This document shows positions 13,662 through 41,634 of a DNA stretch of 64,000 bases, in pieces. The notes beneath the pieces were generated by a model that saw nothing but the letters and a program-made list of their open reading frames with translations, was not told the origin of the DNA and did no database searches. The DNA comes from Escherichia coli. Its GTDB lineage: Bacteria; Pseudomonadota; Gammaproteobacteria; Enterobacterales; Enterobacteriaceae. The number at the start of each line of letters is the position of its first letter. The first letter of the stretch is position 1. The stretch lies in assembly GCF_024223415.1 (NCBI RefSeq), contig NZ_CP100500.1. One strand, 5' to 3'. The position numbers and the translations under genes are program-made.

Positions 13662-13670
13662 GCTCTTTCC

Positions 13671-28557: not shown

Positions 28558-28643
28558 TTTCTCATTTAGTGTTTTTTGTGGTTCGGGGTTGTTCGTGGTT
28601 GTTTGTGTATGTGTTTGATATATATTGAATTATTGTGTTTTCT

Positions 28644-28718
28644 TGTTTGTTGTTGTTCGTCGTTGTTCGTAGAGCTTCAACAAAATGTGTGGTCAGTTGT
28701 GTGGTCAGTTTTTTGAGG
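28644..28718. repeat. Left copy of ~75-bp near-identical direct repeat just inside the island end
   Basis: ttgttcgtcgttgttcgtagagcttcaacaaaatgtgtggtcagttgtgtggtcagtttt shared with 39821-39895; contains internal TTGTTCGT and TGTGGTCAGTT sub-repeats. Confidence 0.85.
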
Positions 28719-28745
28719 CTGGAGGACTGAAAAGAGGATCTGATA

Positions 28746-29969
28746 GTGGGAAAAGCACTAAACAAACTGAGCGATTCGACGTTAAAAAAATTGGCGTCTG
28801 TCCAAGCAGAAAAAGAGCGTTTTTACTCCGACGGGGGCGGGCTGGAGATTAAACACTCAAAGGGCGGCAAATTAACCTGGTATTTCCGGTACCGAACGGG
28901 AGGCCGTGAGGTTGCCGCAGAGCGGTTAAAGCTGGGGGCTTACCCTGAATTGTCGCTGAAAGCTGCAAGGGAAAAACGCGCACAGTGCCGGGCATGGCTG
29001 GCTGAGGGTAAAAACCCCCGTTATGAGTTGTGCGCCACAGTACAGGAAGCGCTAAAACCCGTTACGGTGAAGGAGGCGATTAACTACTGGCTGGATGAAT
29101 ATGCGAAGGATAACCGCAAAGACTACATAAAGCTGGTGCAACGTATGGATAAGCACATCATTTGCCATATAGGGGCAATTCCCCTTGATAAGTGTGATAC
29201 AAGGCAGTGGATCGCATGTTTTGACCGTGTACGAAAAAAAGCACCAGTAGCAGCAGGGCACGTCATGCAAACCTGCAAACAGGCGCTAAAGTTCTGCCGC
29301 AGGAGACGCTACGCGTTCAGTAATGCCCTGGACGATTTGATCGTCAGCGATGTGGGTAAGAGAGCAGAAATTCGCGAGAGGGTGCACAGCAACAGCGAAT
29401 TAAAGGAAATTTTACGCGCTATTGATGGTGATGTGTTCGCGCCTTACTACAGCGCGTTAATGCGCTTGCTGATTGTGTTCGGGTGCAGAACGGCAGAGGT
29501 CAGACTTTCAGAGATCAAAGAATGGGATCTGAAAGAAATGTTGTGGACAGTGCCAAAAGAGCATAGCAAAACGAAGGTAACGATATTCAGGCCAATCCCC
29601 GATGGCATTTTGCCGTTCATTCAGAAGCTGGTGGAGCAGAACCGGCATACAGGGTTATTACTCGGAGAACTGAAAAAAGATACCACGGTAGCGCAATATG
29701 GGCGAAATGCGCATAAGCGGCTTAACCAGGAACACTGGACGCTGCATGACTTTCGCCACACGTTTACAACGATGCTGAACGATTTAGGTGTCGATCCGCA
29801 TATCGTGGAGCACATCACAGCGCATCAGATGCCCGGTCAGCAAAAAACCTATAACCATTCACGCTATTTACAGGCGAAGCGAGACGCTCTGAATCTGTGG
29901 GTTGAGCGCCTCGATGTGCTGGCTGGAAATCATGAAAATATTGTCATATTAAGGGCTGAAAATGAATAA
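28746..29969 (+). CDS. int: Tyrosine recombinase, P4-type integrase
   Basis: N-terminal arm-binding-like segment (SDGGGLEIKHSKGGKLTWYFRYR) and C-terminal catalytic region (HDFRHTFTT...); apparent GTG start. Confidence 0.9.
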   Translation: MGKALNKLSDSTLKKLASVQAEKERFYSDGGGLEIKHSKGGKLTWYFRYRTGGREVAAERLKLGAYPELSLKAAREKRAQCRAWLAEGKNPRYELCATVQEALKPVTVKEAINYWLDEYAKDNRKDYIKLVQRMDKHIICHIGAIPLDKCDTRQWIACFDRVRKKAPVAAGHVMQTCKQALKFCRRRRYAFSNALDDLIVSDVGKRAEIRERVHSNSELKEILRAIDGDVFAPYYSALMRLLIVFGCRTAEVRLSEIKEWDLKEMLWTVPKEHSKTKVTIFRPIPDGILPFIQKLVEQNRHTGLLLGELKKDTTVAQYGRNAHKRLNQEHWTLHDFRHTFTTMLNDLGVDPHIVEHITAHQMPGQQKTYNHSRYLQAKRDALNLWVERLDVLAGNHENIVILRAENE

Positions 29970-30747
29970 TCTGGGCCGTGTATATCATACGCTGCCAATG
30001 GCAGCTAAAAAAATGGGATGTACTGTAGAGGATATTCTACATTTTGGTGCAACTAACCGACTTGAAATATGTGCGTATATTGATGATATTGAACAGAGAA
30101 AAGATTATTGCACTTTTAATGTGTTTTTTGATAATGAAGATAGCGAGAATAGTTTTTCTAAAACTATAAATAAATATAATTCCATATTTACTGACATGTA
30201 TGAAATATCATTGTTTAATTATAATGATGAGTTTTGTGTTGATGATGAGCGTATGGTTATTGAAGGTTTGTATGCTAATCATATGAAAGGCTTTTTTGCA
30301 ATACCATCTGAATTTCTTGTCGAAGTTGAATTGTCAAGTGCCTGTGAAATCATAAATCTATCGCCTCGTTATTTATATACACCGAAAGGTTATGGTGATT
30401 ATATTCGGTTGGATAGTATAGAAGGTCTTTCTATTCCAGAAAACAGGCTCGTGATATTCGATAGTGAGATATCGGGTTTTAATTATCAAAAGAAACCTAA
30501 ATATGCCGGAGGTGAAAGAGAATCACCTAAAACCAGAGCTAAAAAAGCCGAGATAATACCTGCTCTCATAAAACTGATCCCTGAGATGCAAGATGTGGAT
30601 TTGGAGGATACACCCGTATCCAAAATTGCAGAAATGATAGAGGTTATTGCTGCACAAAGAGGGGTTGAGTTACCTAGCACTCACAGGCAGACATGGCAGA
30701 AATATTTAGGGCGTGATGCTGGTGACGTTCCAAAACGTCAAAAGTGA
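29962..30747 (+). CDS. Hypothetical cargo protein, AT-rich, translationally coupled to int
   Basis: 261-aa ORF overlapping int stop by 8 bp; noticeably lower GC than flanks; no motif recognised. Confidence 0.6.
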   Translation: MNNLGRVYHTLPMAAKKMGCTVEDILHFGATNRLEICAYIDDIEQRKDYCTFNVFFDNEDSENSFSKTINKYNSIFTDMYEISLFNYNDEFCVDDERMVIEGLYANHMKGFFAIPSEFLVEVELSSACEIINLSPRYLYTPKGYGDYIRLDSIEGLSIPENRLVIFDSEISGFNYQKKPKYAGGERESPKTRAKKAEIIPALIKLIPEMQDVDLEDTPVSKIAEMIEVIAAQRGVELPSTHRQTWQKYLGRDAGDVPKRQK

Positions 30748-30803
30748 TATCACGTACAGATAGTGTGATATCACACAAACGGCATTTTACCACCGCCTAG
30801 AAT

Positions 30804-30837
30804 CGTCCTCGTTCGGCAACGTTCGAGGACGTTTTTT
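30804..30837 (+). terminator. Hairpin plus T-run immediately upstream of alpA start
   Basis: cgtcctcg...cgaggacg followed by TTTTTT then ATG; the 3' arm contains the GAGGA Shine-Dalgarno-like sequence. Confidence 0.5.
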
Positions 30838-31062
30838 ATGAATCAAAATACACAATTTCAATCACTATCAGATCGCGTAATCCGTGAGGATGAATGCCGT
30901 AAGTTAACAGGAGTGTGCCGCACTACACGCTACGAACTGGAGAAAAAAGGGAGCTTTCCGTCTCGCCGTAATCTTGGTGGGCGTTCTGTAGGTTGGCTGC
31001 TGTCCGAGGTTATGGAATGGGTTAAAAGCCGGGATCGCATTAATTCAGGCAAGGCAGCGTAA
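30838..31062 (+). CDS. alpA: AlpA-family phage transcriptional regulator
   Basis: 74-aa small HTH protein with typical AlpA-like pattern (SDRVIREDECRKLTGVCRTTRYELEKKGSFP). Confidence 0.8.
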   Translation: MNQNTQFQSLSDRVIREDECRKLTGVCRTTRYELEKKGSFPSRRNLGGRSVGWLLSEVMEWVKSRDRINSGKAA

Positions 31063-31200
31063 AGGGGAGTATATGACACATAAAACAAAGGCGACCGGGG
31101 GCGGTCGCCAATGGGAAAACACTAAACATAAGCCCGGCCATCATAGCGATTTGCTGGCTGGTGGGCAATGTGTCCAGTGTGGTGGCTTGCTGGTGGATTG

Positions 31201-31428
31201 TCAGCCAGGCGGTCGGTTTTTGCCGGATTTAAGCCGCCGTGGGTATTTATCGACAAAATCTTCAAGGGCAAATTTTTCTGGTGGCACTAAGCGCGGCGCT
31301 GGTGGTGGTATTTTTGTTCTGGTTAGTTCTTCCTCAAGTCTGGCGCAGGCTTCTGACTGCCTTTGCCGGATGATTTCATCATCTTGCGTTTGCGTGTCTT
31401 GTATTGGTGATAGTGTGTTGTTGGTCAT
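31201..31428 (-). CDS. Hypothetical protein, second gene of leftward operon
   Basis: 75-aa ORF downstream of the RHH-like gene on the minus strand, followed by a hairpin at 31094-31112. Confidence 0.45.
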   Translation of the reverse strand: MTNNTLSPIQDTQTQDDEIIRQRQSEACARLEEELTRTKIPPPAPRLVPPEKFALEDFVDKYPRRLKSGKNRPPG

Positions 31429-31485
31429 GATACTGCCCTGTAAAGCAATGCGCCGTAGTACCTCACACCACGGCGCTGATAGTGA

Positions 31486-31683
31486 TTATTCTGATTCTTT
31501 GGCCTTGCGGCGCTGTTCATATTTTAATTTGCGTCCACAGGCATCTAAGACCCATGCGGAAAAATTAGCACTAGGATTAGTTAATTTTTCTTGTTCAACG
31601 CTGGCATCAATCCCATCTATAAGCTCATGTGGGAATCGAATATTTTTCTTTGCTGATTTGTTGTTTGTGTTACCACTAGACAT
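31486..31683 (-). CDS. Putative ribbon-helix-helix DNA-binding protein, candidate island repressor
   Basis: 65-aa ORF; N-terminal KKNIRFPHELIDGID resembles the beta-strand/helix of CopG/Arc-type RHH proteins; divergent from rightward operon. Confidence 0.45.
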   Translation of the reverse strand: MSSGNTNNKSAKKNIRFPHELIDGIDASVEQEKLTNPSANFSAWVLDACGRKLKYEQRRKAKESE

Positions 31684-31710
31684 TGATGCACCTCACTTAA
31701 ATGGACTTTA

Positions 31711-31790
31711 TGGGCGCACACAATACAGCAAAAAAAGTGAGAAGTTAAGTATTGACATGTGCGCACACATGATTCTAATCTGTGCGCACA
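31711..31790. promoter_or_regulatory. Divergent promoter/operator region with three copies of palindrome TGTGCGCACA
   Basis: tgggcgcaca (31711-31720), tgtgcgcaca (31758-31767), tgtgcgcaca (31781-31790); TTGACA at 31752-31757 immediately precedes the second site. Confidence 0.55.
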
Positions 31791-31882
31791 GTTTGGGTTG
31801 CATTGCTCAAATTAAGCAACGCCCCGCAGTGCTCGCAACACATGCAGGGCGTCTAACCAAACCGTTAATAGGAGTAACGATT

Positions 31883-32083
31883 ATGGCTGGAACACAGCAT
31901 ACCCCACGCCTTGCGCACACACAAACCGCCTTTGTGTGGCGTTTTCTGGCACTGAGTGCCGGAGAATCTCAAATTATCCACGTAACCGCCTGGACGGAAC
32001 GCGAAGCGCGTAACCGTTGCCCGTCCGGTTGTGTCGCTGTATTCGCCGCCCGTATCCGTCAGGGGGAAACCTATGCACAATAA
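31883..32083 (+). CDS. Small protein, possibly Icd-like (host cell division inhibitor family)
   Basis: 67-aa ORF with good RBS (aggag), first gene of rightward operon; family assignment from memory of similar small P4-like proteins, weak. Confidence 0.4.
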   Translation: MAGTQHTPRLAHTQTAFVWRFLALSAGESQIIHVTAWTEREARNRCPSGCVAVFAARIRQGETYAQ

Positions 32084-32303
32084 AACAACACCGGACGCAG
32101 CAGAAGAAGCAATGCAAATACTGATACGTGCGCTCGTTGATGTTACCCACATGGTGGAGATTATGGAGAGAAAATCACAGTCGGAGCACGACAAAAGAAA
32201 ACTTAAAACAATAAAAATAATTGCCAAAAACTCGCTGATAAAAGTTACAGACATCCTTAATGAGGACATTAAAAGAATCAGGGAGAAAGTGTGTGATGCA
32301 TAA
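32073..32303 (+). CDS. Hypothetical protein
   Basis: 76-aa ORF, start overlaps upstream stop, RBS ggggga. Confidence 0.45.
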   Translation: MHNKTTPDAAEEAMQILIRALVDVTHMVEIMERKSQSEHDKRKLKTIKIIAKNSLIKVTDILNEDIKRIREKVCDA

Positions 32304-32523
32304 AATACCTTTTGATGTTCTTATTCATTCTGAAAACGCATTAATCCGTGCAAAGGAAATGGACGCATTACTACTTAAGTTAATTGATGTGCCGGAAAGT
32401 GGCGATGAATCTGATTCAATAATGTTTTCTGCCGTGCGTACGCTATTAACGCATGTTATTAATGAATTAAATACAGTGATGGCAATTCACGAGAATAATA
32501 AAGCGCAGCACACCGGAGAATAA
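32296..32523 (+). CDS. Hypothetical protein
   Basis: 75-aa ORF, start overlaps upstream stop, RBS gggaga. Confidence 0.45.
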   Translation: MHKIPFDVLIHSENALIRAKEMDALLLKLIDVPESGDESDSIMFSAVRTLLTHVINELNTVMAIHENNKAQHTGE

Positions 32524-32528
32524 AAACC

Positions 32529-32828
32529 ATGAAAAATAAAAATTCTGGCGTTAATGCCAGCGGCCCCGCTCGGCCTGAATTTATGAACGGCGATATTTAC
32601 CGCGACCAGTACGGCGGCACGGTAACGATTAAAGGCGTGGAGGAACGGCGCATCACTTACCGCCGTGAAGGCTACGAATATGATTGCGTGATGCCTGTTT
32701 ATCAGTTCCGGCGTGATTTTTCTCTGGTACAGGCAGCGCCCCGCAGTAAACCAACCAGCAGGGAGAAAGCACGCGCCAATATTCAGGAAATAAAAAAGAT
32801 GCTTAACGTATTCAGGGGTAAAAAATGA
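32529..32828 (+). CDS. Hypothetical protein
   Basis: 99-aa ORF, ATGA-coupled to the primase gene. Confidence 0.45.
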   Translation: MKNKNSGVNASGPARPEFMNGDIYRDQYGGTVTIKGVEERRITYRREGYEYDCVMPVYQFRRDFSLVQAAPRSKPTSREKARANIQEIKKMLNVFRGKK

Positions 32829-34573
32829 AACTGGCACCGAACGTAAAAAAACAGCCGCGTGGAATAAAACACAAAGACACAGAGGTGATTATCTTTGCGG
32901 GTAGTGATGCCTGGGCGCACGCGAAACAGTGGCAGGAACAGGACGGCCCCGCATCCGGCGATGATGTGCCGCCTGTGTGGCTCGGGCCAAATCAGCTTGC
33001 TGAACTGGATGCACTGAAAATTGTACCGGAGGGAAAAAAACGCGTAAGGCTGTACAGGGCCGGAGAACTGGATTTGGTGGAGACCAAAAAGATTGGTCAG
33101 AAGCTGGCGGCGGCAGATATTCAGGATGCGAATTTTTACTCTGAAGGAATGCACGGCCAGAAGGTGCAGAACTGGCGGCGCTATCTGAGTGCTGAGCGTG
33201 AAAATATTGCCGCAGGGCTTACCATGCCGGAACAGAAAAAAGCACAACTTTCACAGATGGCAGACAGTGAACGGGCACAGCTTCTTTCTTCCCGCTTTGA
33301 TGGTGTCTGCGTCCATGCAGAAAGTGAAATCGTTCACGTATGGCGCGGCGGGGTATGGTGTCCGGTCAGCACAATGGAACTTAGCCGCGAAATGGTGGCG
33401 ATCTATTCAGAGCACAGGGCCACTTTCAGCAAGCGCGTAATCAATAACGCCGTGGAAGCGTTAAAAGTTATTGCCGAACCAATGGGCGAGCCGTCCGGCG
33501 ATTTGCTGCCGTTCGCCAATGGTGCGCTTGACCTGAAAACGGGGGAATTTTCCCCGCACACGCCGGAGAACTGGATCACCACGCACAACGGCATTGAGTA
33601 CACGCCACCAGCACCAGGGGAGAATATCTGCGACAACGCGCCAAACTTTCATAAATGGCTTGAGCACGCAGCCGGAAAAGACCCGCGCAAGATGATGCGT
33701 ATATGTGCCGCGCTGTACATGATTATGGCGAACCGGTACGACTGGCAGATGTTTATTGAGGCCACCGGAGACGGCGGGAGCGGCAAAAGTACATTCACAC
33801 ACATAGCCAGCCTTCTGGCAGGGAAACAGAACACGGTAAGCGCTGAGATGACATCGCTTGATGATGCTGGTGGGCGTGCGCAGGTTGTCGGGAGTCGGCT
33901 TATTGTCCTGGCAGACCAGCCGAAATATACAGGCGAAGGAACGGGCATCAAGAAAATCACGGGCGGAGACCCCGTGGAAATAAACCCGAAATATGAGAAG
34001 CGTTTTACGGCGGTAATCAGGGCGGTGGTGCTGGCTACCAACAATAACCCGATGATATTCACCGAACGGGCCGGAGGTGTGTCACGTCGTCGCGTAATTT
34101 TCCGTTTCGACAATATCGTCAGTGAGGCTGAAAAAGACAGGGAGCTACCGGAAAAGATTGCGGCTGAAATCCCTGTCATTATCCGCCGCTTGCTGGCGAA
34201 CTTTGCCGACCCTGAAAAGGCACGGGCTTTACTCATTGAACAGCGAGACGGTGATGAAGCTCTGGCAATAAAGCAACAGACGGATCCGGTTATTGAGTTT
34301 TGCCAGTTTCTGAATTTTCTGGAGGAAGCGCGCGGCCTGATGATGGGCGGCGGCGGTGACTCTTCCAGGTACACGACCAGAAACAGCCTTTACCGCGTCT
34401 ATCTGGCGTTTATGGCGTATGCAGGCAGGAGCAAACCGCTAAACGTAAATGACTTTGGCAAGGCTATGAAGCCAGCGGCGAAAGTTTACGGACATGAATA
34501 TATAACGCGCAGGATTAAAGGGTTTACGCAAACCAACGTGACAACAACAGACGACTGCGACGCGTTTTTATAA
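32825..34573 (+). CDS. Phage/plasmid primase, P4 family (NTPase/helicase domain)
   Basis: 582-aa ORF with Walker A GDGGSGKST and D5/P4-alpha-like C-terminal NTPase architecture. Confidence 0.8.
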   Translation: MKLAPNVKKQPRGIKHKDTEVIIFAGSDAWAHAKQWQEQDGPASGDDVPPVWLGPNQLAELDALKIVPEGKKRVRLYRAGELDLVETKKIGQKLAAADIQDANFYSEGMHGQKVQNWRRYLSAERENIAAGLTMPEQKKAQLSQMADSERAQLLSSRFDGVCVHAESEIVHVWRGGVWCPVSTMELSREMVAIYSEHRATFSKRVINNAVEALKVIAEPMGEPSGDLLPFANGALDLKTGEFSPHTPENWITTHNGIEYTPPAPGENICDNAPNFHKWLEHAAGKDPRKMMRICAALYMIMANRYDWQMFIEATGDGGSGKSTFTHIASLLAGKQNTVSAEMTSLDDAGGRAQVVGSRLIVLADQPKYTGEGTGIKKITGGDPVEINPKYEKRFTAVIRAVVLATNNNPMIFTERAGGVSRRRVIFRFDNIVSEAEKDRELPEKIAAEIPVIIRRLLANFADPEKARALLIEQRDGDEALAIKQQTDPVIEFCQFLNFLEEARGLMMGGGGDSSRYTTRNSLYRVYLAFMAYAGRSKPLNVNDFGKAMKPAAKVYGHEYITRRIKGFTQTNVTTTDDCDAFL

Positions 34574-34597
34574 TTTTTTGTAATTGCTGTCTACCCT

Positions 34598-34815
34598 GTC
34601 TACCTGAGTAAAGAAAAATACATTTAATTCAGTGCATTAAGTTAGGTAGATAGCCTTTTTTTACTGTCTACCCACTATCTACCCTCTCTACCTGATTTTA
34701 CCAGAATCAGACAGGGAGGTAGACACGGGGTAGATAGTGGATAAAAGCACTCTACCCCGCTGAAAGCCGCGCCATTACTGGCATGAGGGCCACTAAGGTA
34801 GGTAAGGTAGACAAG
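34598..34815. repeat. Iteron cluster, putative island replication origin
   Basis: Many direct and inverted copies of GTCTACC/TCTACCC/GGTAGA motifs immediately downstream of the primase gene. Confidence 0.6.
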
Positions 34816-34861
34816 GGGAGGCACAACTCAAAACTTTTTAAACGAGGGGGTAAAAATAAAA

Positions 34862-35119
34862 ATGCACACATCAGAAAAATTTAACAATCAGAAGAAATCA
34901 CATAACCGCGCCATTGACCTTACAGAGCACTGGCTGAGGGTGGCGATAAAAATCATCGACCGCAACGCGGGAGAAGGATACGCGAAAGCACATCCCGAAC
35001 TGATAAGCGCATTCATGACCACAGCGGCGGCAAACTTTGCCACGTTGACAGAACGGGAGATTGCCGAAGCGGAACAGGTGACAACCATCAATGTTAAAAC
35101 CGGAGAGCAGACAGCATGA
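34862..35119 (+). CDS. Hypothetical protein
   Basis: 85-aa ORF, ATGA-coupled to ssb. Confidence 0.45.
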   Translation: MHTSEKFNNQKKSHNRAIDLTEHWLRVAIKIIDRNAGEGYAKAHPELISAFMTTAAANFATLTEREIAEAEQVTTINVKTGEQTA

Positions 35120-35526
35120 CAGCACAGATAGCGGCTTACGGGCGGCTGGTGGACGACCCGCAGACAAAACAGACCAGCAAGGGAACACCGATGACGCTGG
35201 CACGTATGGCGGTATCGCTGCCATGCAGCCAGGCACAGGATGGACAGGCGACGTTATGGCTATCGGTCATCGCATTTGGTAAGCAGGCCGACTTCCTGGC
35301 TAAACATCAAAAAGGCGACGTTGCCAGCGTATCCGGCACGATGCAGGTCAGCCAGTGGACCGGACAGAACGGGGAAACGCGGCAGGGTTATCAGGTTATT
35401 GCAGACAGCGTAATCAGTGCCCGTGCGGCACGTCCTGGCGGGAACAGACGCAAAACCACAGGCACACAGGGTAATCAGCCACCAGCGGGAGGCGATGACC
35501 CTTACGGTGATGATATTCCGTTCTGA
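35116..35526 (+). CDS. ssb: Single-stranded DNA-binding protein
   Basis: OB-fold-like N-terminus, Gly/Pro-rich linker and acidic C-terminal tail ending DDIPF. Confidence 0.8.
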   Translation: MTAQIAAYGRLVDDPQTKQTSKGTPMTLARMAVSLPCSQAQDGQATLWLSVIAFGKQADFLAKHQKGDVASVSGTMQVSQWTGQNGETRQGYQVIADSVISARAARPGGNRRKTTGTQGNQPPAGGDDPYGDDIPF

Positions 35527-35536
35527 GGGGGTGACG

Positions 35537-35809
35537 ATGGTACATGACCGGATAGCGGAGGAACTGGAGGCGAAAGGATTTTACCGGAGGGCGGCCGCGC
35601 GATGGGGTGAAGTTATGAGGCTGGTGAGCACTGACAAGGAGCGCGAACAGGTGGCAATGCGACGGCTGGAATGTTCACAGAAGGCACAGAGGCCACCGGA
35701 GCCGCCGGATGATTTAGGCGCTCTGAAAAGGTCAGTTAATCGCACTGAAAAACAAATGGGGATAGCTGGTATTGGCAAAGCAATATGGCGCAACTACCCG
35801 CAGAAGTGA
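35537..35809 (+). CDS. Small putative transcriptional regulator, PerC-like
   Basis: 90-aa ORF; resemblance to PerC-family prophage regulators is from memory and weak. Confidence 0.4.
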   Translation: MVHDRIAEELEAKGFYRRAAARWGEVMRLVSTDKEREQVAMRRLECSQKAQRPPEPPDDLGALKRSVNRTEKQMGIAGIGKAIWRNYPQK

Positions 35810-35815
35810 GCACAC

Positions 35816-35839
35816 AGCCGGAGCAATCCGGCTTTTTTG
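35816..35839 (+). terminator. Intrinsic terminator
   Basis: agccggagcaatccggc followed by TTTTTT. Confidence 0.6.
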
Positions 35840-35843
35840 CACC

Positions 35844-35887
35844 CAAAAAAAGCCCGATAAGTACAGGAGGCATCTTATCGGGCTTTT
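35844..35887. terminator. Second hairpin, bidirectional-looking
   Basis: A-run, stem gcccgataag...cttatcgggc, T-run. Confidence 0.55.
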
Positions 35888-35966
35888 GCATATGAGGTTT
35901 TTTTTGGTGCACTGACACACATGATCGGGATAATCATTTCATAATTTGCAACGTAACTCAATATTG

Positions 35967-36015
35967 TTGCGCAAAATGCAATCATGATTATAATCAGGAC
36001 TGGATGAACATCCAG
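35967..36015 (+). promoter_or_regulatory. Sigma70-like promoter with downstream dyad operator ahead of the capsid operon
   Basis: TTGCGC (35967-35972), 16-bp spacer, TATAAT (35989-35994), then perfect dyad ctggatgaacatccag (36000-36015). Confidence 0.5.
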
Positions 36016-36050
36016 TTATGATTTTTTAAGTCAAAGAGGAATTTCTGACT

Positions 36051-36257
36051 ATGGCAGAAGAGAAAAAAGGCGGGGTGACGGTCTACATAAGCCCCGACAT
36101 CGTGGAGGCGCTCAAGGAACGCCACCAGCAGAATGTAAAAGCAGGCATTGCGGCAGGACTTGATCCGCTGGCGATGGTTGAGCCGTCAACAGGCTGGCAG
36201 GTGCGTACCTATTTACGTGCGGCGCTGGGTATCAATCAGGTTCACGGAGGTGAATAA
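36051..36257 (+). CDS. Hypothetical small protein, first gene of capsid operon
   Basis: 68-aa ORF with RBS, stop overlaps capsid gene start. Confidence 0.45.
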   Translation: MAEEKKGGVTVYISPDIVEALKERHQQNVKAGIAAGLDPLAMVEPSTGWQVRTYLRAALGINQVHGGE

Positions 36258-37312
36258 TGACAGGCAAAGCAACGGCACTTACAACTAACCAGCTTTTCGC
36301 GTACCTGAATCGCGGGGATATTTCGGAATTAAAATTCAGTCCGCTGTTTACCACGCTGTTTTTCCCGAACGTGGCGACCTTCAACACCCAAAACATCATG
36401 CTGGACACCCTGGACATTGAAGAGGTTACGATGTCAGCGTTCTGTTCGCCTATGGTGGGTAGTCAGGTCCAGCGCGATAAAGGGTACGAAACCAGCACAA
36501 TCAAACCTGGCTACATGAAGCCAAAGCACGAAATCGATCCAACAAAGACCATCATGCGCATGGCTGGAGAAGATCCGGCACAGCTTAACGACCCAACCTA
36601 TCGCCGTATGCGCCTGATTACTGGCAACATGCGCCGCCAGGTAAACGCCATTAAAGCGCGTGTTGAATGGCTGGCGGTGAATGCGGTAACGACCGGAAAA
36701 AACATCATTGAGGGCGAAGGCATAGAACGCTATGAAATCGACTGGAAAATACCGGAAAACTGCATCATACAGCAGGCCAGTGGTAAAAAATGGTCCCAGC
36801 AGGATAAAGACATGCACGACCCAATCTATGACATCGAGCTTTATGCTGATCAGGCAGGTTGCCCCGCCAACGTCATGATTATGGGCGGTGAGGTATGGCG
36901 CACATTACGCAGCTTTAAAAAATTCCGTGAACTGTACGATCTTTCCCGTGGATCAGAATCCGCCGCCGAGCTGGCCTGTAAAAACCTGGGCGAAGTGGTG
37001 AGCTTTAAAGGCTATCTTGGTGATCTGGCCCTTATCGTCTATTCCGGCAAATACACTGACAGCGACGGCACCGAAAAATATTTCCTTGAGCCTGATTTGC
37101 TGGTCCTGGGTAACACCAATAATAAAGGGCTGGTGGCATATGGTGCGATTATGGATCAGGAAGCGGTAAGAACGGGCGCAACGCAAAACATGTACTACCC
37201 GAAAAACTGGATTGAGGACGGCGATCCGGCGATTGAGTACGTGCAGACGCACAGCGCACCGCAGCCGGTACCGGCAGATATTCGCAAATTTGTTACCGTC
37301 AAAATTGCTTAA
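36257..37312 (+). CDS. Major capsid protein, lambda gpE-like
   Basis: Clear blocks of similarity to lambda gpE from memory: KFSPLFTTLFF, KPGYMKPKHEIDP, EDPAQLNDPTYRRMR, YSGKY, YPKNWIEDGDPA. Confidence 0.85.
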   Translation: MTGKATALTTNQLFAYLNRGDISELKFSPLFTTLFFPNVATFNTQNIMLDTLDIEEVTMSAFCSPMVGSQVQRDKGYETSTIKPGYMKPKHEIDPTKTIMRMAGEDPAQLNDPTYRRMRLITGNMRRQVNAIKARVEWLAVNAVTTGKNIIEGEGIERYEIDWKIPENCIIQQASGKKWSQQDKDMHDPIYDIELYADQAGCPANVMIMGGEVWRTLRSFKKFRELYDLSRGSESAAELACKNLGEVVSFKGYLGDLALIVYSGKYTDSDGTEKYFLEPDLLVLGNTNNKGLVAYGAIMDQEAVRTGATQNMYYPKNWIEDGDPAIEYVQTHSAPQPVPADIRKFVTVKIA

Positions 37313-37323
37313 CGGGGGATTCT

Positions 37324-37659
37324 ATGGACGCTCCATATATTGAGTTATTTGCAGGCAGCCAGCAGGTATCCACGACGCTGGTACATTTTGCCGCTGATGC
37401 TGGCGTTATTCAGGAATTTACCCCGCTGATGCTGGCAGACAATGGCGAGTTTAAGGCGTGGGATGGTCAGGAATCTGGCAAAGCTGTTTATCTGACTTCG
37501 CACCCCGTGGACACGTCAAAGCAGAAATCAGCACAGTGTTACAAAACGGGGATATTCAATATTGCCGCCGTTAACTGGCCTGACAGCGTCGACACCGATG
37601 CGAAAAAATGCGCCGCCTTTGCGGGTTCCGGCGTATCCGTTCAGCCGCTGGCCCGATAA
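37324..37659 (+). CDS. Head decoration protein, lambda gpD-like
   Basis: Similarity to lambda gpD blocks: TPLMLADNGEFKAWDG and YKTG.F....WPDSVDTDAKKCAAFAGSGVSV. Confidence 0.75.
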   Translation: MDAPYIELFAGSQQVSTTLVHFAADAGVIQEFTPLMLADNGEFKAWDGQESGKAVYLTSHPVDTSKQKSAQCYKTGIFNIAAVNWPDSVDTDAKKCAAFAGSGVSVQPLAR

Positions 37660-37671
37660 GCAGGGGGAACG

Positions 37672-38085
37672 ATGGCAACGAATGAAAGTATCATGACGCT
37701 ACCGCTGGCGAGTAAATTTAAAGCCGAAGCGCGGGCAATGGCTGACAGAGGTTTATCAACCTACGAGGCCATACACCGACTAAACAAACTGGAAGAACAG
37801 GACAAGCCGCGCGCTGATGCGATTATGGCGCTTCATGAATCTGACGACTACCAGCCGCTGTTACGTGCAATGGCTAACGTGCCTTGTATCGATGTTGGTA
37901 CGGCTAAAAGCATCCTTAGCATGACCATAGAGCAGGAACGCCCGAAGGTTGCACCAGAGCTTACTTCAGCCTTTGAAAACTTTATGGACATGCACAGCCC
38001 GAAAGCCGTATCAGCTGGCATGGCATACGATGGCAGAACCCCGTGCGATGACGGCGACATCGACCGCATACTGAAAACCATCTGA
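37672..38085 (+). CDS. Hypothetical head-module protein
   Basis: 137-aa ORF directly after the decoration gene; no motif recognised. Confidence 0.45.
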   Translation: MATNESIMTLPLASKFKAEARAMADRGLSTYEAIHRLNKLEEQDKPRADAIMALHESDDYQPLLRAMANVPCIDVGTAKSILSMTIEQERPKVAPELTSAFENFMDMHSPKAVSAGMAYDGRTPCDDGDIDRILKTI

Positions 38086-38090
38086 GACAA

Positions 38091-38116
38091 GGCCGGAGAA
38101 ATCCGGCTTTTTTTGC
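38091..38116 (+). terminator. Intrinsic terminator after capsid operon
   Basis: aggccggagaaatccggc followed by TTTTTTT; near-duplicate of the hairpin at 35816. Confidence 0.6.
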
Positions 38117-38200
38117 GGGTCCTTTCCGGCATGTGGACCCGTTACGGGGCGTCGACCTCGCACGTTTTCGCTATTTATGACGTTTTTCCGTGAAGGTGAC
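38115..38200 (+). other. Lambda-like cos site (cosQ-cosN-proximal cosB), copy 1, upstream of terS-like gene
   Basis: gggtcctttccgg...gttacg GGGCGTCGACCT cgcacgttttcgctatttatga closely resembles remembered lambda cos (gggtcctttccgg...gttacg GGGCGGCGACCT cgcgggttttcgctatttatgaaaa). Confidence 0.7.
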
Positions 38201-38247
38201 ACCACCACCACTTGATTAATATTTAACCATGTAGTTAAGGTAACATT

Positions 38248-38682
38248 ATGATTGATAAAGCTTGTTTTGTAAGTCAGCAGGAAATAGCTGAACATTTCAA
38301 TGTTAACAGAACCACTATTCGCGCATGGACCAAACAGGGGATGCCGTATCTTAATGCGGATCGCGGAAAGTCTGGCGGTTATCACATCGGGCATACATTG
38401 TTTTGGTATTCAGGTAAAAGCCATCTTCAGACCATCGGATATCACGTAGAAACCAGTGCGCTGGAAAAAATTATGTTTGCCAGGCTGCTTTCATCTGAGC
38501 GTGACGAGTACTCCAGTGAAGAAACAGAACATCGATTTGATGAAGGTTTGCAGATTTACGGCTATTCACCGGAAGATGTGAGCAAGGCACGAAATAAAAT
38601 GGCTGGCTTTCTGGCTGGGTGGCGTCATGCCGTAAGCGTTCGCCGTGCCAGCATGGAGCAATCAGCCGATACAGAACAGTAA
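38248..38682 (+). CDS. Terminase small subunit-like protein (Nu1-like winged-helix N-terminus)
   Basis: N-terminus QQEIAEHFNVNRTTIRAWTKQGMPYL parallels lambda Nu1 KKQLADIFGASIRTIQNWQEQGMPVL; C-terminal part is divergent. Confidence 0.7.
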   Translation: MIDKACFVSQQEIAEHFNVNRTTIRAWTKQGMPYLNADRGKSGGYHIGHTLFWYSGKSHLQTIGYHVETSALEKIMFARLLSSERDEYSSEETEHRFDEGLQIYGYSPEDVSKARNKMAGFLAGWRHAVSVRRASMEQSADTEQ

Positions 38683-38714
38683 AGCCGATAACTTGTTAAT
38701 CACGCGCAGCAATG

Positions 38715-38850
38715 CGTGTGATTTTTGCACACTTCCGGTTAACGGGTACGATGTCCGGTTTGTTTGTACATTTTTTGCACATGTCCGGTTCGCAGAAAGC
38801 ATGTTTTTATATTTTTCAGATAGTTAACTTGCAGAGAAACCGGACATGGA
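38715..38850. repeat. Direct and inverted repeats TTTTTGCACA..TCCGGTT / AACCGGACATGG downstream of terS-like gene
   Basis: tttttgcacacttccggtt (~38722), ttttttgcacatgtccggtt (~38771), aaccggacatgg (38838-38849). Confidence 0.6.
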
Positions 38851-38930
38851 TCCCGAAAAATTTTCATAAATAGTGAAAACGCGCGGGTTCGACGCCCCGT
38901 AACGGGCCATAATTCCAGAAGGACCCGACG
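38845..38930 (-). other. Lambda-like cos sequence, copy 2, inverted relative to copy 1
   Basis: Reverse complement reads cgggtccttctgg...gttacg GGGCGTCGAACC cgcgcgttttcactatttatgaaaatttttcggg; long imperfect inverted repeat of 38115-38200. Confidence 0.65.
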
Positions 38931-38960
38931 ACACCAGACTATCAGAGCGATGGGGGCACA

Positions 38961-39242
38961 ATGACAGAAGCCGAACTACTGGGATTAATCCGCCGCGTTA
39001 CCGGAATCAGCCAGCAGCATGACGAACAGGCCACGCAGCCGGACAGCGTGACCGCCGAAAATTATGTGCGTGTTGTTGCGGAGGTGATGCGCCGTGACGG
39101 TATTGAGCTTAACGGCGTGGATATGCGCGACATACGGATCCGCGTTCTGGAAATGCTGGCATACCGTCGCCGCGTGCAGACGTACAGGGAAAAAGCAAAA
39201 ATAACGTACCACTGGAAGAAGCCGGAACGACTGCGTACGTAA
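38961..39242 (+). CDS. Hypothetical protein
   Basis: 93-aa ORF downstream of cos copy 2. Confidence 0.4.
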   Translation: MTEAELLGLIRRVTGISQQHDEQATQPDSVTAENYVRVVAEVMRRDGIELNGVDMRDIRIRVLEMLAYRRRVQTYREKAKITYHWKKPERLRT

Positions 39243-39374
39243 TACGTACGGACATCGAGATAACGCAAAATTGCGCTGGCTACATCCCTCACATCTGAGG
39301 ACTGATAACAAGCTGCCTGAAAGACAGTCACAAACTACGAAATTTTCGCAGTTTAATTAATGGTCAGCTTAATC

Positions 39375-39665
39375 GCTAACCCGCTGATATTTTCGGAAAC
39401 ATCAATTTGAGGAAGTCGGCGCGGTAACTCGCTGAACTTAAAGCAAAGCGCAAAATTGCGCTGATTACTGGTTGGAATTGTTCCAGAGTGCAAATTTGCA
39501 CTCTGGCCTAACCCGTTGATTATTTCGAAAACCTGCAATGCAGGAAATCGGGGAAGTAAGCCTAAGCTATTGATTGTTTCGAAAACCACCATTGGGGGAT
39601 GTCGGGAAAGTAAGACTAACCCATTGATTCTTCCACAATCCTCAATGTGAGGAGGCCGGACATCG
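39375..39665. repeat. Four ~54-bp imperfect repeats (three in tandem), each with a variable central CAAT-containing near-palindrome
   Basis: Units at ~39375, 39506, 39560, 39614 share CTAACCC.TTGATT.TTTCGAAAAC and TCGGG.AAGTAAG flanks around a variable centre (e.g. cctgcaatgcagg, cctcaatgtgagg). Confidence 0.7.
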
Positions 39666-39820
39666 TGACAGAGCGTGACAACCAGGTAACTAATCTCGCT
39701 GGTGGGCGTGATGTCGATATGGTGATCCCCATAACGGGTTATCCGTGATCATCCACCAGCTTCATGGCAGATAGCCGGAAAATGATAACGGTTAAGCAAA
39801 ACTGCCAGCAAATTTCCCTT

Positions 39821-39895
39821 TTGTTTGTTATTGTTCGTCGTTGTTCGTAGAGCTTCAACAAAATGTGTGGTCAGTTGTGTGGTCAGTTTTGAGGT
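39821..39895. repeat. Right copy of ~75-bp near-identical direct repeat just inside the island end
   Basis: Same ~60-bp core as 28644-28718. Confidence 0.85.
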
Positions 39896-39953
39896 TTTTA
39901 ATTCTTATGTGCTGAAAAACTTATTAATTATCAACTGATAACAAAAATTAGTA

Positions 39954-39967
39954 AGAAATACCCGTAT
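39954..39967. repeat. attR core: 14-bp direct repeat AGAAATACCCGTAT
   Basis: Identical to 28544-28557; continues directly into riboswitch 3' sequence. Confidence 0.75.
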
Positions 39968-40048
39968 CACCTGATCTGGATAATGCCAGCGTAGGGAAGT
40001 CACGGACCACCAGGTCATTGCTTCTTCACGTTATGGCAGGAGCAAACT
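39954..40048 (+). ncRNA. 3' part of thiM TPP riboswitch (P4/P5 plus expression platform) retained upstream of thiM
   Basis: gaaatacccgtatcacctgatctggataatgccagcgtagggaagtcacggaccaccaggtcattgcttcttcacgttatggcaggagcaaact ATG matches the thiM leader 3' half. Confidence 0.75.
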
Positions 40049-40837
40049 ATGCAAGTCGACCTGCTGGGTTCAGCGCAATCTGCGCACGCGTTACACCTTT
40101 TTCACCAACATTCCCCTCTTGTGCACTGCATGACCAATGATGTGGTGCAAACCTTTACCGCCAATACCTTGCTGGCGCTCGGTGCATCGCCAGCGATGGT
40201 TATCGAAACCGAAGAGGCCAGTCAGTTTGCGGCTATCGCCAGTGCCTTGTTGATTAACGTTGGCACACTGACGCAGCCACGCGCTCAGGCGATGCGTGCT
40301 GCCGTTGAGCAAGCAAAAAGCTCTCAAACACCCTGGACGCTTGATCCAGTAGCGGTGGGTGCGCTCGATTATCGCCGCCATTTTTGTCATGAACTTTTAT
40401 CTTTTAAACCGGCAGCGATACGTGGTAATGCTTCGGAAATCATGGCATTAGCTGGCATTGCTAATGGCGGACGGGGAGTGGATACCACTGACGCCGCAGC
40501 TAACGCGATACCCGCTGCACAAACACTGGCACGGGAAACTGGCGCAATCGTCGTGGTCACTGGCGAGATGGATTATGTTACCGATGGACATCGTATCATT
40601 GGTATTCACGGTGGTGATCCGTTAATGACCAAAGTGGTAGGAACTGGCTGTGCATTATCGGCGGTTGTCGCTGCCTGCTGTGCGTTACCAGGCGATACGC
40701 TGGAAAATGTCGCATCTGCCTGTCACTGGATGAAACAAGCCGGAGAACGCGCAGTCGCCAGAAGCGAGGGGCCAGGCAGTTTTGTTCCACATTTCCTTGA
40801 TGCGCTCTGGCAATTGACGCAGGAGGTGCAGGCATGA
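40049..40837 (+). CDS. thiM: Hydroxyethylthiazole kinase
   Basis: 262-aa ORF, translation recognised as ThiM. Confidence 0.93.
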
Positions 40838-41634
40838 AACGAATTAACGCTCTGACGATTGCCGGTACTGATCCGAGTGGTGGTGCGGGGATTCAGGCCG
40901 ATCTTAAAACCTTCTCGGCACTTGGCGCTTATGGTTGCTCAGTTATTACTGCACTGGTGGCGCAAAATACCCGTGGCGTACAGTCGGTGTATCGCATTGA
41001 GCCTGATTTTGTCGCCGCCCAGCTCGATTCGGTGTTCAGCGATGTGCGAATCGATACCACTAAAATCGGTATGCTGGCGGAAACCGATATTGTTGAAGCG
41101 GTGGCAGAACGGTTGCAACGTTATCAGATCCAAAACGTGGTACTCGACACCGTTATGCTGGCAAAAAGCGGCGACCCGCTGCTTTCACCTTCGGCGGTTG
41201 CTACGCTGCGCAGTCGATTATTGCCACAGGTTTCATTAATAACGCCAAACTTGCCCGAAGCTGCCGCCTTGCTCGACGCGCCACACGCGCGCACCGAACA
41301 GGAAATGCTGGAACAAGGGCGATCGCTGTTGGCGATGGGCTGTGGCGCAGTGCTAATGAAAGGTGGTCATCTGGATGATGAGCAAAGCCCGGACTGGCTG
41401 TTTACCCGCGAGGGTGAACAACGGTTTACCGCACCGCGCATTATGACCAAAAACACCCACGGCACTGGTTGTACACTCTCTGCGGCGTTGGCTGCACTAC
41501 GCCCGCGCCATACAAACTGGGCTGACACCGTACAGGAGGCAAAAAGCTGGCTTTCATCGGCGTTAGCCCAGGCCGACACGCTGGAAGTTGGTCACGGTAT
41601 TGGTCCGGTTCACCACTTCCACGCCTGGTGGTGA
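40834..41634 (+). CDS. thiD: Hydroxymethylpyrimidine/phosphomethylpyrimidine kinase
   Basis: 266-aa ORF overlapping thiM stop; PfkB-like kinase motifs. Confidence 0.93.

Follow-up and report, generated by a model that had tools for sequence, protein, structure and literature searches.

The prototype Gram-negative PICI is EcCICFT073, a phage satellite of E. coli (Fillol-Salom et al., 2018, PMC6092414; Fillol-Salom et al., 2019, PMC6739421) whose induction and mobilisation by a helper phage have been shown (PMC6092414) and in which two cos sites have been reported (PMC6739421). Capsid-forming PICIs have been described as the EcCIEDL933 family (bioRxiv 10.1101/2022.09.08.507074). The word "terminator" does not occur in any of these three papers, and the hairpins analysed here are not mentioned in them; a literature search on terminators and module junctions in PICIs found nothing relevant.

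We analysed a window, meaning the whole stretch of 64,000 nucleotides of E. coli DNA, in which an island of about 11 kb (28643 to 39890) is flanked by a direct repeat whose copies lie 11.2 kb apart. PICIs carry an integrase and AlpA at one end, have their own primase-type replication, measure about 10-15 kb between flanking att sites and are devoid of lysis and tail genes. In the window, att repeats, integrase, alpA, D5-type primase and SSB genes were all found, and all island genes lie on the + strand. The island ends and the early region are made up as follows:

28643-28712: attL, a 70-nt direct repeat at the left island end, 98.6% identical to 39821-39890
28746-29969, + strand: integrase gene (407-aa ORF)
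30838-35809, + strand: early/replication region (Pfam hits), colinear with EcCICFT073 at 91% identity, with the next seven genes
30838-31062, + strand: alpA
between alpA and the DUF4222 gene, + strand: 336-aa ORF
32529-32828, + strand: DUF4222 gene
32825-34573, + strand: D5-type primase gene
between the D5-type primase and SSB genes, + strand: 85-aa ORF
35116-35526, + strand: SSB gene
ending at 35809 (stop codon 35807-35809), + strand: PerC-family gene (perC)
39821-39890: attR, the right copy of the 70-nt direct repeat

The 70 nt of attL were also found 5' of the integrase in a related locus (L002), and the integrase gene is 98.4% identical at the DNA level to that of a site-specific integrase of E. 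coli PKF4. Packaging functions of the EcCICFT073 type are present as well, in the form of a 144-aa protein matching RppC and of cosQ and cosN sequences common to lambdoid phages. Judged by this gene content, the element is an EcCICFT073-type PICI that carries a four-gene capsid operon. It shares with EcCICFT073 (locus L001) the gene order, about 91% DNA identity from the DUF4222 gene to the last gene, the capsid and decoration genes (c1499 and c1500), Rpp, two cos sites and the same two hairpins in the same places, at 7318 and 9590. It differs from EcCICFT073 in its attachment site, which lies next to thiM, in its integrase and in the segment adjacent to alpA. No island at least 99% identical along the 8.6-kb segment 30800-39400 was found in 5,426 E. 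coli genomes.

The late region, which follows perC, contains the following features:

35967-36017, + strand: putative capsid-operon promoter (TTGCGC, 16-nt spacer, TATAAT at 35989-35994)
35998-36017: leader inverted repeat GACTGGAT-GAAC-ATCCAGTT, after the TATAAT of the putative promoter
36051-38085, + strand: capsid operon, with the next four genes
36051-36257, + strand: 68-aa ORF
36257-37312, + strand: lambda gpE-like major capsid protein gene (Pfam Phage_cap_E, E=1e-50)
37324-37659, + strand: gpD-like decoration protein gene (Pfam HDPD, E=1.7e-17)
37672-38085, + strand: 137-aa ORF, matching phrog_1999 and a head maturation protease phrog (its C-terminal part)
38117-38193, + strand: lambda-like cos site (cosQ GGGTCCT at 38117-38123; cosN GGGCGTCGACCT at 38147-38158)
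38248-38682, + strand: rpp, redirecting phage packaging protein (144 aa; PDB 6hlk RppC, E=1.6e-33)
38851-38927, - strand: second cos-like site, in inverted orientation
38961-39242, + strand: conserved last gene (93 aa), matching phrog_1561

The capsid-operon promoter is called putative because the stricter rule of the promoter scan made no call there. A reading of the leader repeat (35998-36017) and its T run as an antitermination arrangement like lambda pR'/tR' was dropped, because the predicted start site lies inside the 5' arm of the repeat and a DNA operator is at least as likely. A protein-pattern scan of genome contigs with the capsid protein returned zero relatives, and DNA-based searches were therefore used; these placed the capsid cassette in 597 of the 5,426 E. 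coli genomes, at 90-99% identity. The cosQ and cosN assignments follow from a comparison with lambda cos. The second cos-like site forms a 70-nt inverted repeat with 38124-38193 (79% complementary), and promoter-like sites were called 3' of cos and 5' of rpp (38196-38252). The rpp product has a Nu1-like helix-turn-helix, and related islands have a Nu1-family terS in place of rpp. The 93-aa gene is 87% identical at the DNA level to positions 14337-14611 of a capsid-forming PICI (L007), a segment that there directly follows the large terminase gene, and it constitutes the right arm common to the window and the capsid-forming PICIs.

These capsid-forming PICIs (L006, L007) also share the left arm, DUF4222-primase-SSB-PerC, and the same hairpin at its end. 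What they have of their own between this hairpin and the last gene is an HK97-type capsid with protease, portal, HNH, TerS and TerL genes, whereas the window island has the gpE-type operon, a second copy of the hairpin, cos and rpp. The hairpins are located as follows:

35816-35838, + strand: hairpin 1, AGCCGGA-GCAA-TCCGGCT with T6 (35833-35838), predicted to close the early (replication/PerC) operon
35846-35886: intervening hairpin, between hairpin 1 and the capsid operon (A7, 14-bp stem, T4)
38091-38114, + strand: hairpin 2, GGCCGGA-GAAA-TCCGGC with T7 (38108-38114), predicted to close the capsid operon, 2 nt upstream of cosQ

The sequence-only reading had described two near-duplicate hairpins, with T6 and T7, on either side of the capsid operon, and it was right on both counts: hairpins 1 and 2 are identical at 24 of 27 positions (in a repeat search, a 27-nt direct repeat of 89% identity, 2275 nt apart), and the whole operon lies between them. 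It gave their starts exactly and set their ends (35839 and 38116) 1-2 nt too far, which is of no consequence. When GCCGGAGNAATCCGGCTTTTTTG was searched with up to three mismatches, only hairpins 1 and 2 were found in the 64 kb and no match in any of 100 shuffles. The predicted RNA fold of hairpin 1 has an energy of -15.4 kcal/mol (z = -3.6 against shuffles) and that of hairpin 2 of -17.7 kcal/mol (z = -3.3); both have 7-bp stems with 5 GC pairs, capped by 4-nt loops of the GNRA tetraloop type, and in stem and T tract both conform to the terminator pattern. Hairpin 1 starts 7 nt past the perC stop codon and hairpin 2 starts 6 nt past the stop codon of the 137-aa gene (38083-38085), so that each lies 3' of, and in the same orientation as, a transcription unit. 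A generic terminator scan called 22 sites in this region against 19.8 expected from shuffles, which is no enrichment, and listed hairpin 1 while missing hairpin 2; an Rfam search of 35400-39400 gave two sub-threshold chance matches, none of them at either hairpin. The intervening hairpin, which the sequence-only reading left out, is unrelated to hairpins 1 and 2, folds at -20.5 kcal/mol (z = -4.7) and precedes the capsid promoter region in every gpE-type island; it looks like a bidirectional terminator that travels with the capsid module. By these features hairpins 1 and 2 look like ordinary Rho-independent terminators. They resemble those of E. coli and its phages in their short GC-rich stem, GNRA-type tetraloop, U tract of 6-7, position a few bases past a co-oriented stop codon and tandem arrangement with another terminator, and there is no structural difference between the two sets. 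What is unusual is the recurrence of the same terminator sequence at up to three places per 10-15 kb element and its preservation across the family despite differing neighbours.

Three other identities were excluded. An integron attC site closes each cassette on its 3' side, is an imperfect inverted repeat of some 57-141 bp in which core sites are paired, and is accompanied by an adjacent IntI integrase and attI; here the hairpin comprises only 17 nt plus the T tract, the sole recombinase is the island's attachment-site integrase, and the motif is also present in single copy in unrelated genomes. In phage nut sites, a short hairpin with a GNRA-like loop is preceded by a boxA consensus and is not followed by a U tract, whereas neither hairpin has a boxA-like CGCTCTTA in the 25 nt upstream and the T6-T7 tract follows directly. 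REP/BIME and MITE elements are dispersed in many copies over the host chromosome, outside mobile elements; such an element was excluded on copy number, as there are only two copies within the 64-kb window, both in the island.

We then compared the hairpins across related islands, in a sample of 120 IMG/VR loci with 194 exact motif matches and eight E. coli loci. Because the IMG/VR loci were picked by the exact motif, the apparent conservation of the hairpin in them is inflated. In total, 171 of the 194 matches lie inside PICIs, and each island of the sample has one to three copies. Five unrelated genes occur 5' of the hairpin (SSB, PerC, ProQ/FinO, a 74-aa gene and the 137-aa gene), and it precedes at least six contexts, among them the gpE module, a 74-aa cassette, the capsid-forming module, four cos types and a further module. 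Across related copies the stem is mostly unchanged, and each of the four bases occurs at the second loop position; GAAAA and GAAG loops are also seen, and a tract of T5-T8 is found in all of them. In a divergent island (L005), the slot of hairpin 1 is occupied by GCCGGGA-TTTT-TCCCGGC, with one base added per arm and pairing kept, and the position of the intervening hairpin by a different GC hairpin. Hairpin 2 is kept after the 137-aa gene in every gpE-type island examined, and other capsid modules end in a different terminator, GGCGGC-ACCA-GCCGCC with T6, likewise 2 nt from cosQ. These substitutions, which are few independent events, point to conservation of structure and not just of sequence. 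Some relatives have, on each side of the capsid module, a direct repeat of a longer unit of hairpin plus cos, and in one of them (L021) the left and right units are alike through hairpin, cosQ and cosN.

At least 120 unrelated bacterial genomes, from various phyla, were also found to have one copy each of the exact 21-nt motif, in every case outside a PICI, and the motif is likewise present in 23 unrelated low-GC viral contigs. The motif is therefore a generic terminator design that has evolved recurrently and is not specific to PICIs, and identity alone is weak evidence for common descent. This occurrence, together with the simplicity of the stem, a GC palindrome capped by a GNRA loop, is what would be expected if hairpins 1 and 2 were terminators of independent origin that had come to resemble each other by convergence on a favoured sequence, their likeness carrying no history. 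We regard such convergence as unlikely, since most islands of the family hold two or three copies in 10-15 kb while there is none elsewhere in the 64-kb window, the likeness reaches into the flanks (TGAG..ACA on the 5' side, the T run and GC on the 3' side), and in islands of the L021 type it continues through cosQ and cosN. Thus, we infer that the hairpins share a common origin: it is likely that both are Rho-independent terminators in an EcCICFT073-type PICI and copies of one reused terminator, and that hairpin 1 marks the boundary between the left arm and the late region. Hairpin 1 itself is probably the remnant of a left hairpin-plus-cos unit that has lost its cos.

The proximity of hairpin 2 to cosQ raises the alternative that it belongs to the packaging signal, acting as a DNA structure or as a palindrome bound by a protein, and is not primarily a terminator. 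In line with this, 82 of the 194 hairpin instances lie 2-3 nt from cosQ, and the other capsid modules have a hairpin of different sequence at the same position. However, lambdoid helper phages share cosQ and cosN and do not have the hairpin, the hairpin occurs with no adjacent cos in the window (hairpin 1) and in many islands, and a loop of 4-5 nt with a T tract that is always there is more in keeping with an RNA terminator than with a site bound by a dimer. A packaging role in place of termination is accordingly very improbable. A phage source of hairpin 2 was also considered and rejected: 86 lambdoid phage records align with the window from base 38110-38111 on, so that they have the cos site and exclude the hairpin.

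The two hairpins differ in how the homology between islands behaves around them. At hairpin 1, homology to the window halts in 69 of 79 loci, starting there in 36 and ending there in 33, while 10 loci span it. At hairpin 2, by contrast, 50 of 51 loci run across and a single one ends. The right edge of the conserved block lies about 80 nt past hairpin 2, where the cos site ends (38176-38205, the endpoint in 37 loci), or, when the entire late region is replaced, at the start of the last gene (about 38960). Individual islands show the same pattern. L004 is 98.2% identical to the window over 35816-38193, with homology beginning at the first base of hairpin 1 and an unrelated ProQ gene upstream of it, while the 88.9% identity of L007 stops at 35837, where an unrelated HK97-type capsid-forming and terminase module takes over; in the reciprocal query, matches stop at base 7722 of L007, the last T of the matched hairpin pattern. 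The blocks that L002, L004 and L008 have in common with the window cross hairpin 2 and reach the cos end at 38188-38193. Thus, hairpin 1 is the main mosaic junction of this island family, and hairpin 2 is not a swap point.

These breakpoints bear directly on the proposal of the sequence-only reading that the capsid cassette was acquired or shuffled as a unit bounded by the two hairpins, for which comparison of related islands had been suggested as the check. The comparison bore out modularity at hairpin 1 and moved the right edge from hairpin 2 to the cos end or the start of the last gene; the notion of a cassette moving as one unit, with a hairpin at each boundary, fails. A mobile unit gained, lost or exchanged by recombination between the hairpins would fit with their being direct repeats that flank the cassette and with hairpin 1 being a genuine junction, and the smaller 74-aa cassette does act in this way: it has a hairpin copy on each side, and islands that do not have the cassette keep exactly one (L006 vs L007, L008 vs L001), which can be either loop variant. 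Against this, the unbroken passage of nearly all loci across hairpin 2 largely refutes the right boundary, and the deletion product that such recombination predicts was not found: a synthetic perC-hairpin-cos-rpp junction (hairpin 1 x 2) was covered to at least 80% in 0 of the 5,426 E. coli genomes, and the order perC-hairpin-cos(D1)-rpp is absent among the 194 hairpin instances. We therefore hold it highly unlikely that the capsid cassette moves between its two hairpins. The 74-aa cassette further accounts, as one type of event, for many of the breakpoints at hairpin 1.

A different role in recombination is that of a short identical linker at which late modules and small cassettes are exchanged, possibly aided by recombination of the phage Red type or of the host. 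Islands that differ to the left as well as to the right have no sequence but the hairpin in common, L004 sharing only the right side with the window and L007 only the left, and the identity to L004 starts at the first hairpin base. Furthermore, the hairpin joins left and right flank types in varying combinations, presence and absence of the 74-aa cassette leave one hairpin of either loop variant, and the gpE-type cassette was found in several O157:H7 strains while the capsid-forming island L006 comes from another O157:H7 strain that is not among these. On the other hand, 21-30 nt is short for RecA-dependent exchange, and accessory genes such as perC and ProQ lie upstream of a single hairpin with no second copy, so that exchange from hairpin to hairpin did not bring them in. 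A sharp junction at hairpin 1 would equally be expected if conservation of the left arm simply ended with the hairpin and crossovers took place elsewhere, anywhere within the arms. We consider the exchange-linker role a serious possibility that falls somewhat short of even chances, and the same holds for the narrower statement that the 21-30-nt hairpin is itself the site of the crossover. The broadest form, in which the hairpin serves the whole family as a crossover linker that swaps gpE-type late regions with rpp or terS, HK97-type regions, a protease-capsid fusion and small cassettes, is more tentative again.

The junction also invites comparison with lambdoid phages, in whose mosaic genomes short conserved boundary sequences stand at the joints and "morons" are gene cassettes with their own terminator. 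The islands are alike in having mosaic joints at gene ends and in the 74-aa cassette, whose 3' end bears a copy of the terminator and which is either there as a whole or missing. The promoter scan found no sigma-70-like promoter for this cassette, which therefore falls short of the full moron definition. Unlike in lambdoid modules, one specific terminator sequence is here the recurring boundary.

Under the reading that we prefer, in which both hairpins are copies of one reused terminator, hairpin 1 and the intervening hairpin 8 nt downstream would halt the rightward alpA-primase-SSB-PerC transcript before the capsid promoter, and hairpin 2 would end transcription of the capsid operon 2 nt short of cosQ, keeping upstream transcripts out of cos and of rpp, which would have its own promoter. 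The conserved terminator is present in one to three copies per island, each at the 3' end of a gene cassette. Hairpin 1 separates the conserved replication arm from a highly variable late region; in some islands this is a gpE-type capsid operon together with either rpp or terS, in others the HK97-type module of the capsid-forming PICIs or yet another capsid module. Hairpin 2 sits within a conserved block, together with the capsid operon and cosQ/cosN.

The hairpins themselves are ordinary, and the comparative insight into PICI module boundaries that they provide is modest. As a landmark, hairpin 1 shows precisely where, in E. coli PICIs, the conserved replication arm gives way to the variable packaging region, and the classical (Rpp/cos) and capsid-forming islands have a common backbone up to one specific base. 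The capsid operon travels with its own terminator and with cosQ/cosN; cosB plus rpp or terS make up a specificity unit of their own, which varies separately. If the hairpin does serve as a linker, enterobacterial classical and capsid-forming PICIs would be recombinants on one shared backbone and not separate lineages. Such boundaries may be of use in designing synthetic islands, as payload sites that spare transcription units, in studying how satellites acquire capsid genes, and in annotation; RefSeq annotates spurious ORFs across the hairpin.

The capsid operon, which runs from a 68-aa ORF to a 137-aa ORF, is flanked by two near-identical terminator-like hairpins, as the sequence-only reading had proposed. 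A third, unrelated hairpin follows the left one:

35816-35838, gene strand: hairpin 1, AGCCGGA-GCAA-TCCGGCT then T6
35846-35886: second hairpin, 8 nt 3' of hairpin 1 and unrelated to it; A7 run, 14-bp stem, T4 run; -20.5 kcal/mol
38091-38114, gene strand: hairpin 2, GGCCGGA-GAAA-TCCGGC then T7

A repeat search paired hairpins 1 and 2 as a direct repeat of 27 nt, 24 of which match, at a spacing of 2275 nt. With up to 3 mismatches allowed, their pattern of stem, loop and T tract occurred in the 64-kb window at these two sites only and in none of 100 shuffles. RNA folding gave -15.4 kcal/mol (z = -3.6) for hairpin 1 and -17.7 kcal/mol (z = -3.3) for hairpin 2, and the TGA stop of a same-strand gene lies 6-7 nt 5' of the start of each. 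A generic terminator scan, which picked up hairpin 1 and missed hairpin 2, found 22 sites versus 19.8 expected and thus no enrichment in the hairpin region. It is therefore the near-identity of the two hairpins that is noteworthy, not their terminator-like appearance.

Both hairpins sit inside an 11.2-kb island, the ends of which are 70-nt direct repeats:

28643-28712: left 70-nt direct repeat
38117-38123 and 38147-38158: cosQ (GGGTCCT) and cosN (GGGCGTCGACCT) of a lambda-like cos site
39821-39890: right 70-nt direct repeat

The left part of the island carries integrase, alpA, a DUF4222 gene, D5-type primase, SSB, a PerC-family gene and hairpin 1; the middle carries the 68-aa ORF, a lambda gpE-like capsid protein, a gpD-like decoration protein, the 137-aa ORF and hairpin 2; and the right part carries the lambda-like cos, a 144-aa RppC-like protein that matches the solved RppC structure (E=1.6e-33), an inverted cos-like site and a conserved 93-aa gene. 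From the DUF4222 gene onward the island is colinear, at ~91% identity, with EcCICFT073, the prototype Gram-negative phage-inducible chromosomal island (PICI), in which earlier studies described a capsid homologue (c1499), a decoration homologue (c1500), Rpp (c1503) and a pair of cos sites (PMC6092414, PMC6739421). EcCICFT073 likewise has both hairpins at equivalent places; the literature searched on these islands, including these two papers, does not mention them. The hairpins look like ordinary terminators, and the island that carries them is closely related to a well-studied element. The best supported reading is that they act as intrinsic terminators, which would split the island into transcription units under separate control. 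Hairpin 1 would, together with the second hairpin, shield the capsid promoter from the early operon, and hairpin 2 would halt the capsid transcript immediately before cos. A promoter scan called promoter-like sites for rpp at 38196-38252. The candidate capsid promoter, read by eye and not called by the scan, has a perfect TATAAT (35989-35994) and a weak -35 element.

Window positions 32000-39700 were aligned by blastn to 128 loci, 120 from IMG/VR and 8 from E. coli, and the start and end of each homologous tract were noted, leaving out ends at contig edges.

Homologous tracts at the hairpins and at the end of cos
Hairpin 1: 36 starting, 33 ending, 10 spanning
Hairpin 2: 0 starting, 1 ending, 50 spanning
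End of cos (38176-38205): 0 starting, 37 ending, 12 spanning

The capsid cassette had been suggested to be acquired or shuffled as a unit bounded by both hairpins. Judged from these tracts, this is half right, with a modular junction at hairpin 1 and none at hairpin 2. E. coli B771 (L004) shows 98.2% identity to window 35816-38193, beginning at the first base of hairpin 1, and upstream of its hairpin lies a ProQ/FinO gene unrelated to the window. The capsid-forming (cf-type) island of Ecol_316 (L007) shows 88.9% identity to window 32498-35837, i.e. to the end of hairpin 1, after which it carries capsid, protease, portal, HNH, TerS and TerL genes until window homology resumes at the 93-aa gene. 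When L007 served as the query instead, many matches in E. coli stopped at its base 7722, where the matched hairpin pattern has its last T, and the perC-hairpin-capsid-forming junction was present in 353 genomes. A single conserved, predicted terminator marks the point at which the late regions of classical and capsid-forming PICIs are swapped, a comparative finding of modest interest of which we found no mention in the papers searched. It is possible, rather than probable, that the hairpin doubles as a recombination crossover; alternatively, it is just the last conserved element of the left arm. If gpE-type islands (those with a lambda gpE-like capsid operon) and cf-type islands share one genome, their common left arm would offer an opportunity to exchange late modules. 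The gpE-type cassette occurs in many O157:H7 strains (LSU61 and 1130 among them), and a different O157:H7 strain, ECP19-798, is the source of the cf-type island L006.

On the right, the capsid operon, hairpin 2 and cosQ/cosN are retained in PKF4 and RM12581, where a Nu1-family terS replaces rpp, with the break at 38188. Exchange of the capsid cassette between both hairpins found no support: a synthetic perC-hairpin-cos-rpp junction, the product expected of cassette loss, was at least 80% covered in 0 of 5,426 genomes, and this arrangement was seen in 0 of 194 hairpin instances. Hairpin-bounded behaviour does exist for another cassette, that of a 74-aa gene (phrog_1957), which has one hairpin copy per side, 354-364 nt apart. 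Otherwise colinear islands without this gene (L006 vs L007; L008 vs EcCICFT073) have exactly one copy, of either loop variant.

A scan of IMG/VR for the exact motif GCCGGAGNAATCCGGCTTTTT gave 120 loci. Across these, 8 E. coli loci and the window, 171 of 194 motif instances fall in this island family, at 1-3 copies per island and on the gene strand without exception. Five unrelated genes lie 5' of the hairpin (SSB, PerC, ProQ/FinO, the 74-aa gene and the 137-aa gene), and at least six contexts lie 3' of it in the IMG/VR and E. coli loci:

gpE-type capsid module, always through the second hairpin
74-aa cassette
HK97-type module of capsid-forming PICIs
cos sites, of four sequence types
module of a 64-aa ORF, a terS-like ORF and a capsid-like ORF
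set of very large genes

The stem does not vary, loop base 2 can be any of the four bases, and some loops read GAAAA or GAAG. In L005, a divergent island, the place of hairpin 1 is taken by GCCGGGA-TTTT-TCCCGGC, with one pair added on both arms, and a different GC hairpin stands in for the second hairpin. Other capsid modules end in a terminator of another sequence, GGCGGC-ACCA-GCCGCC+T6, which, like hairpin 2, lies 2 nt from cosQ. Lambdoid phages have cosQ and cosN in common with the window, from base 38110 onward, and lack the hairpin. Together, the L005 variant, the alternative terminator at cosQ and the hairpin-free lambdoid phages point to selection for structure and termination function. 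For the post-perC hairpin region (L006 7663-7778; L008 6651-6779), RefSeq lists a small hypothetical protein or a 'trigger factor' pseudogene with a frameshift; both seem to be artefacts of annotation across a terminator.

The exact motif also turned up, once in each, in at least 120 bacterial genomes of many phyla, with no PICI among the genome loci listed (a tblastn check gave one weak AlpA match only), and in 23 low-GC viral contigs. Thus, it is a terminator design that has evolved repeatedly and does not serve as a marker for these islands, and its identity alone is no proof of common descent; the case for that rests on 2-3 copies within ~11 kb, additional flank similarity and the units of hairpin plus cos. 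Low-GC (34-37%) viral contigs with a GGAA loop (L023, L031, L032, L058, L066, L075, L076, L080, L125) share one conserved sequence 5' of the hairpin and have three different sequences 3' of it, which makes them another instance, unrelated to the first, of a junction at this terminator.

Such hairpin-plus-cos units suggest an origin for the duplicate. L021-type islands have the order SSB, hairpin, cos of one type, second hairpin, promoter, gpE operon, hairpin, cos of another type and terS, and their left and right units are alike across hairpin, cosQ and cosN. In the window, the second hairpin directly follows hairpin 1 with no cos in between, and we infer that hairpin 1 is a remnant of a left unit. 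Several other capsid modules likewise lie between two direct cos sites. Very different modules in family islands (L041 2898-5690, L029 3592-6870, L021 4648-7200) encode a 629-aa ClpP-like protease-capsid fusion or separate protease and capsid genes, and each of the two direct cos sites around them has a terminator hairpin before it. L096 lacks a capsid module, and its content is limited to SSB, hairpin, cos, ~640 nt and the 93-aa gene. In L005 (E. coli CFIAFB20180511; capsid cassette 79% identical), P2-like baseplate and tail genes directly follow the island (10434-15502), which appears to sit inside a prophage, similar to the helper-embedded satellites of PMC10111431.

The window's two lambda-like cos sites (38117-38193 and 38851-38927) are inverted to each other on either side of rpp. 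The cosQ-cosN spacer of the right site resembles the spacer 3' of hairpin 2 in other islands (e.g. L003), suggesting that the two sites underwent an exchange or inversion. Although the capsid operon of L004 matches the window at 98% identity, the stretch between the two cos sites of L004 (9042-9700) is rearranged: the sequence downstream of rpp comes next to the first cos in reverse orientation, and rpp is mostly missing. Between the last island gene and attR, a 54-nt repeat occurs three times (39374-39613; 70-100% alike; spacing 132 and 54 nt), part of which is also found at the end of L007. Among 5,426 complete E. coli genomes, no island was at least 99% identical along the 8.6-kb query 30800-39400 (best 91-94%), and the thiM/thiD flank (39679-41000) shows only 95.3% identity to E. 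coli PKF4; the host may belong to an atypical Escherichia lineage.

Directly 3' of the TATAAT, an inverted repeat at 35998-36017, GACTGGAT-GAAC-ATCCAGTT and then ATGATTTTTT, extends over the site at which capsid-operon transcription is expected to start and could be an operator or leader hairpin; it is kept in L021 and not recognisable at the equivalent position in L005. The 137-aa gene (37672-38085) matches positions 496-566 of 583, in the C-terminal part, of the head maturation protease family phrog_53, suggesting a lambda Nu3-like scaffold and not the 'head-tail connector' of some RefSeq annotations. Alignments break in 21 loci at a hypervariable patch (~37875-37925) within it. Each alternative late module starts with a small ORF of 64-75 aa with no Pfam match:

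window 36051-36257
L024 6422-6616
L041 3315-3542
L099 4635-4841

These ORFs are alike in pattern, a short strand-like stretch followed by helices, and might encode a ribbon-helix-helix regulator.
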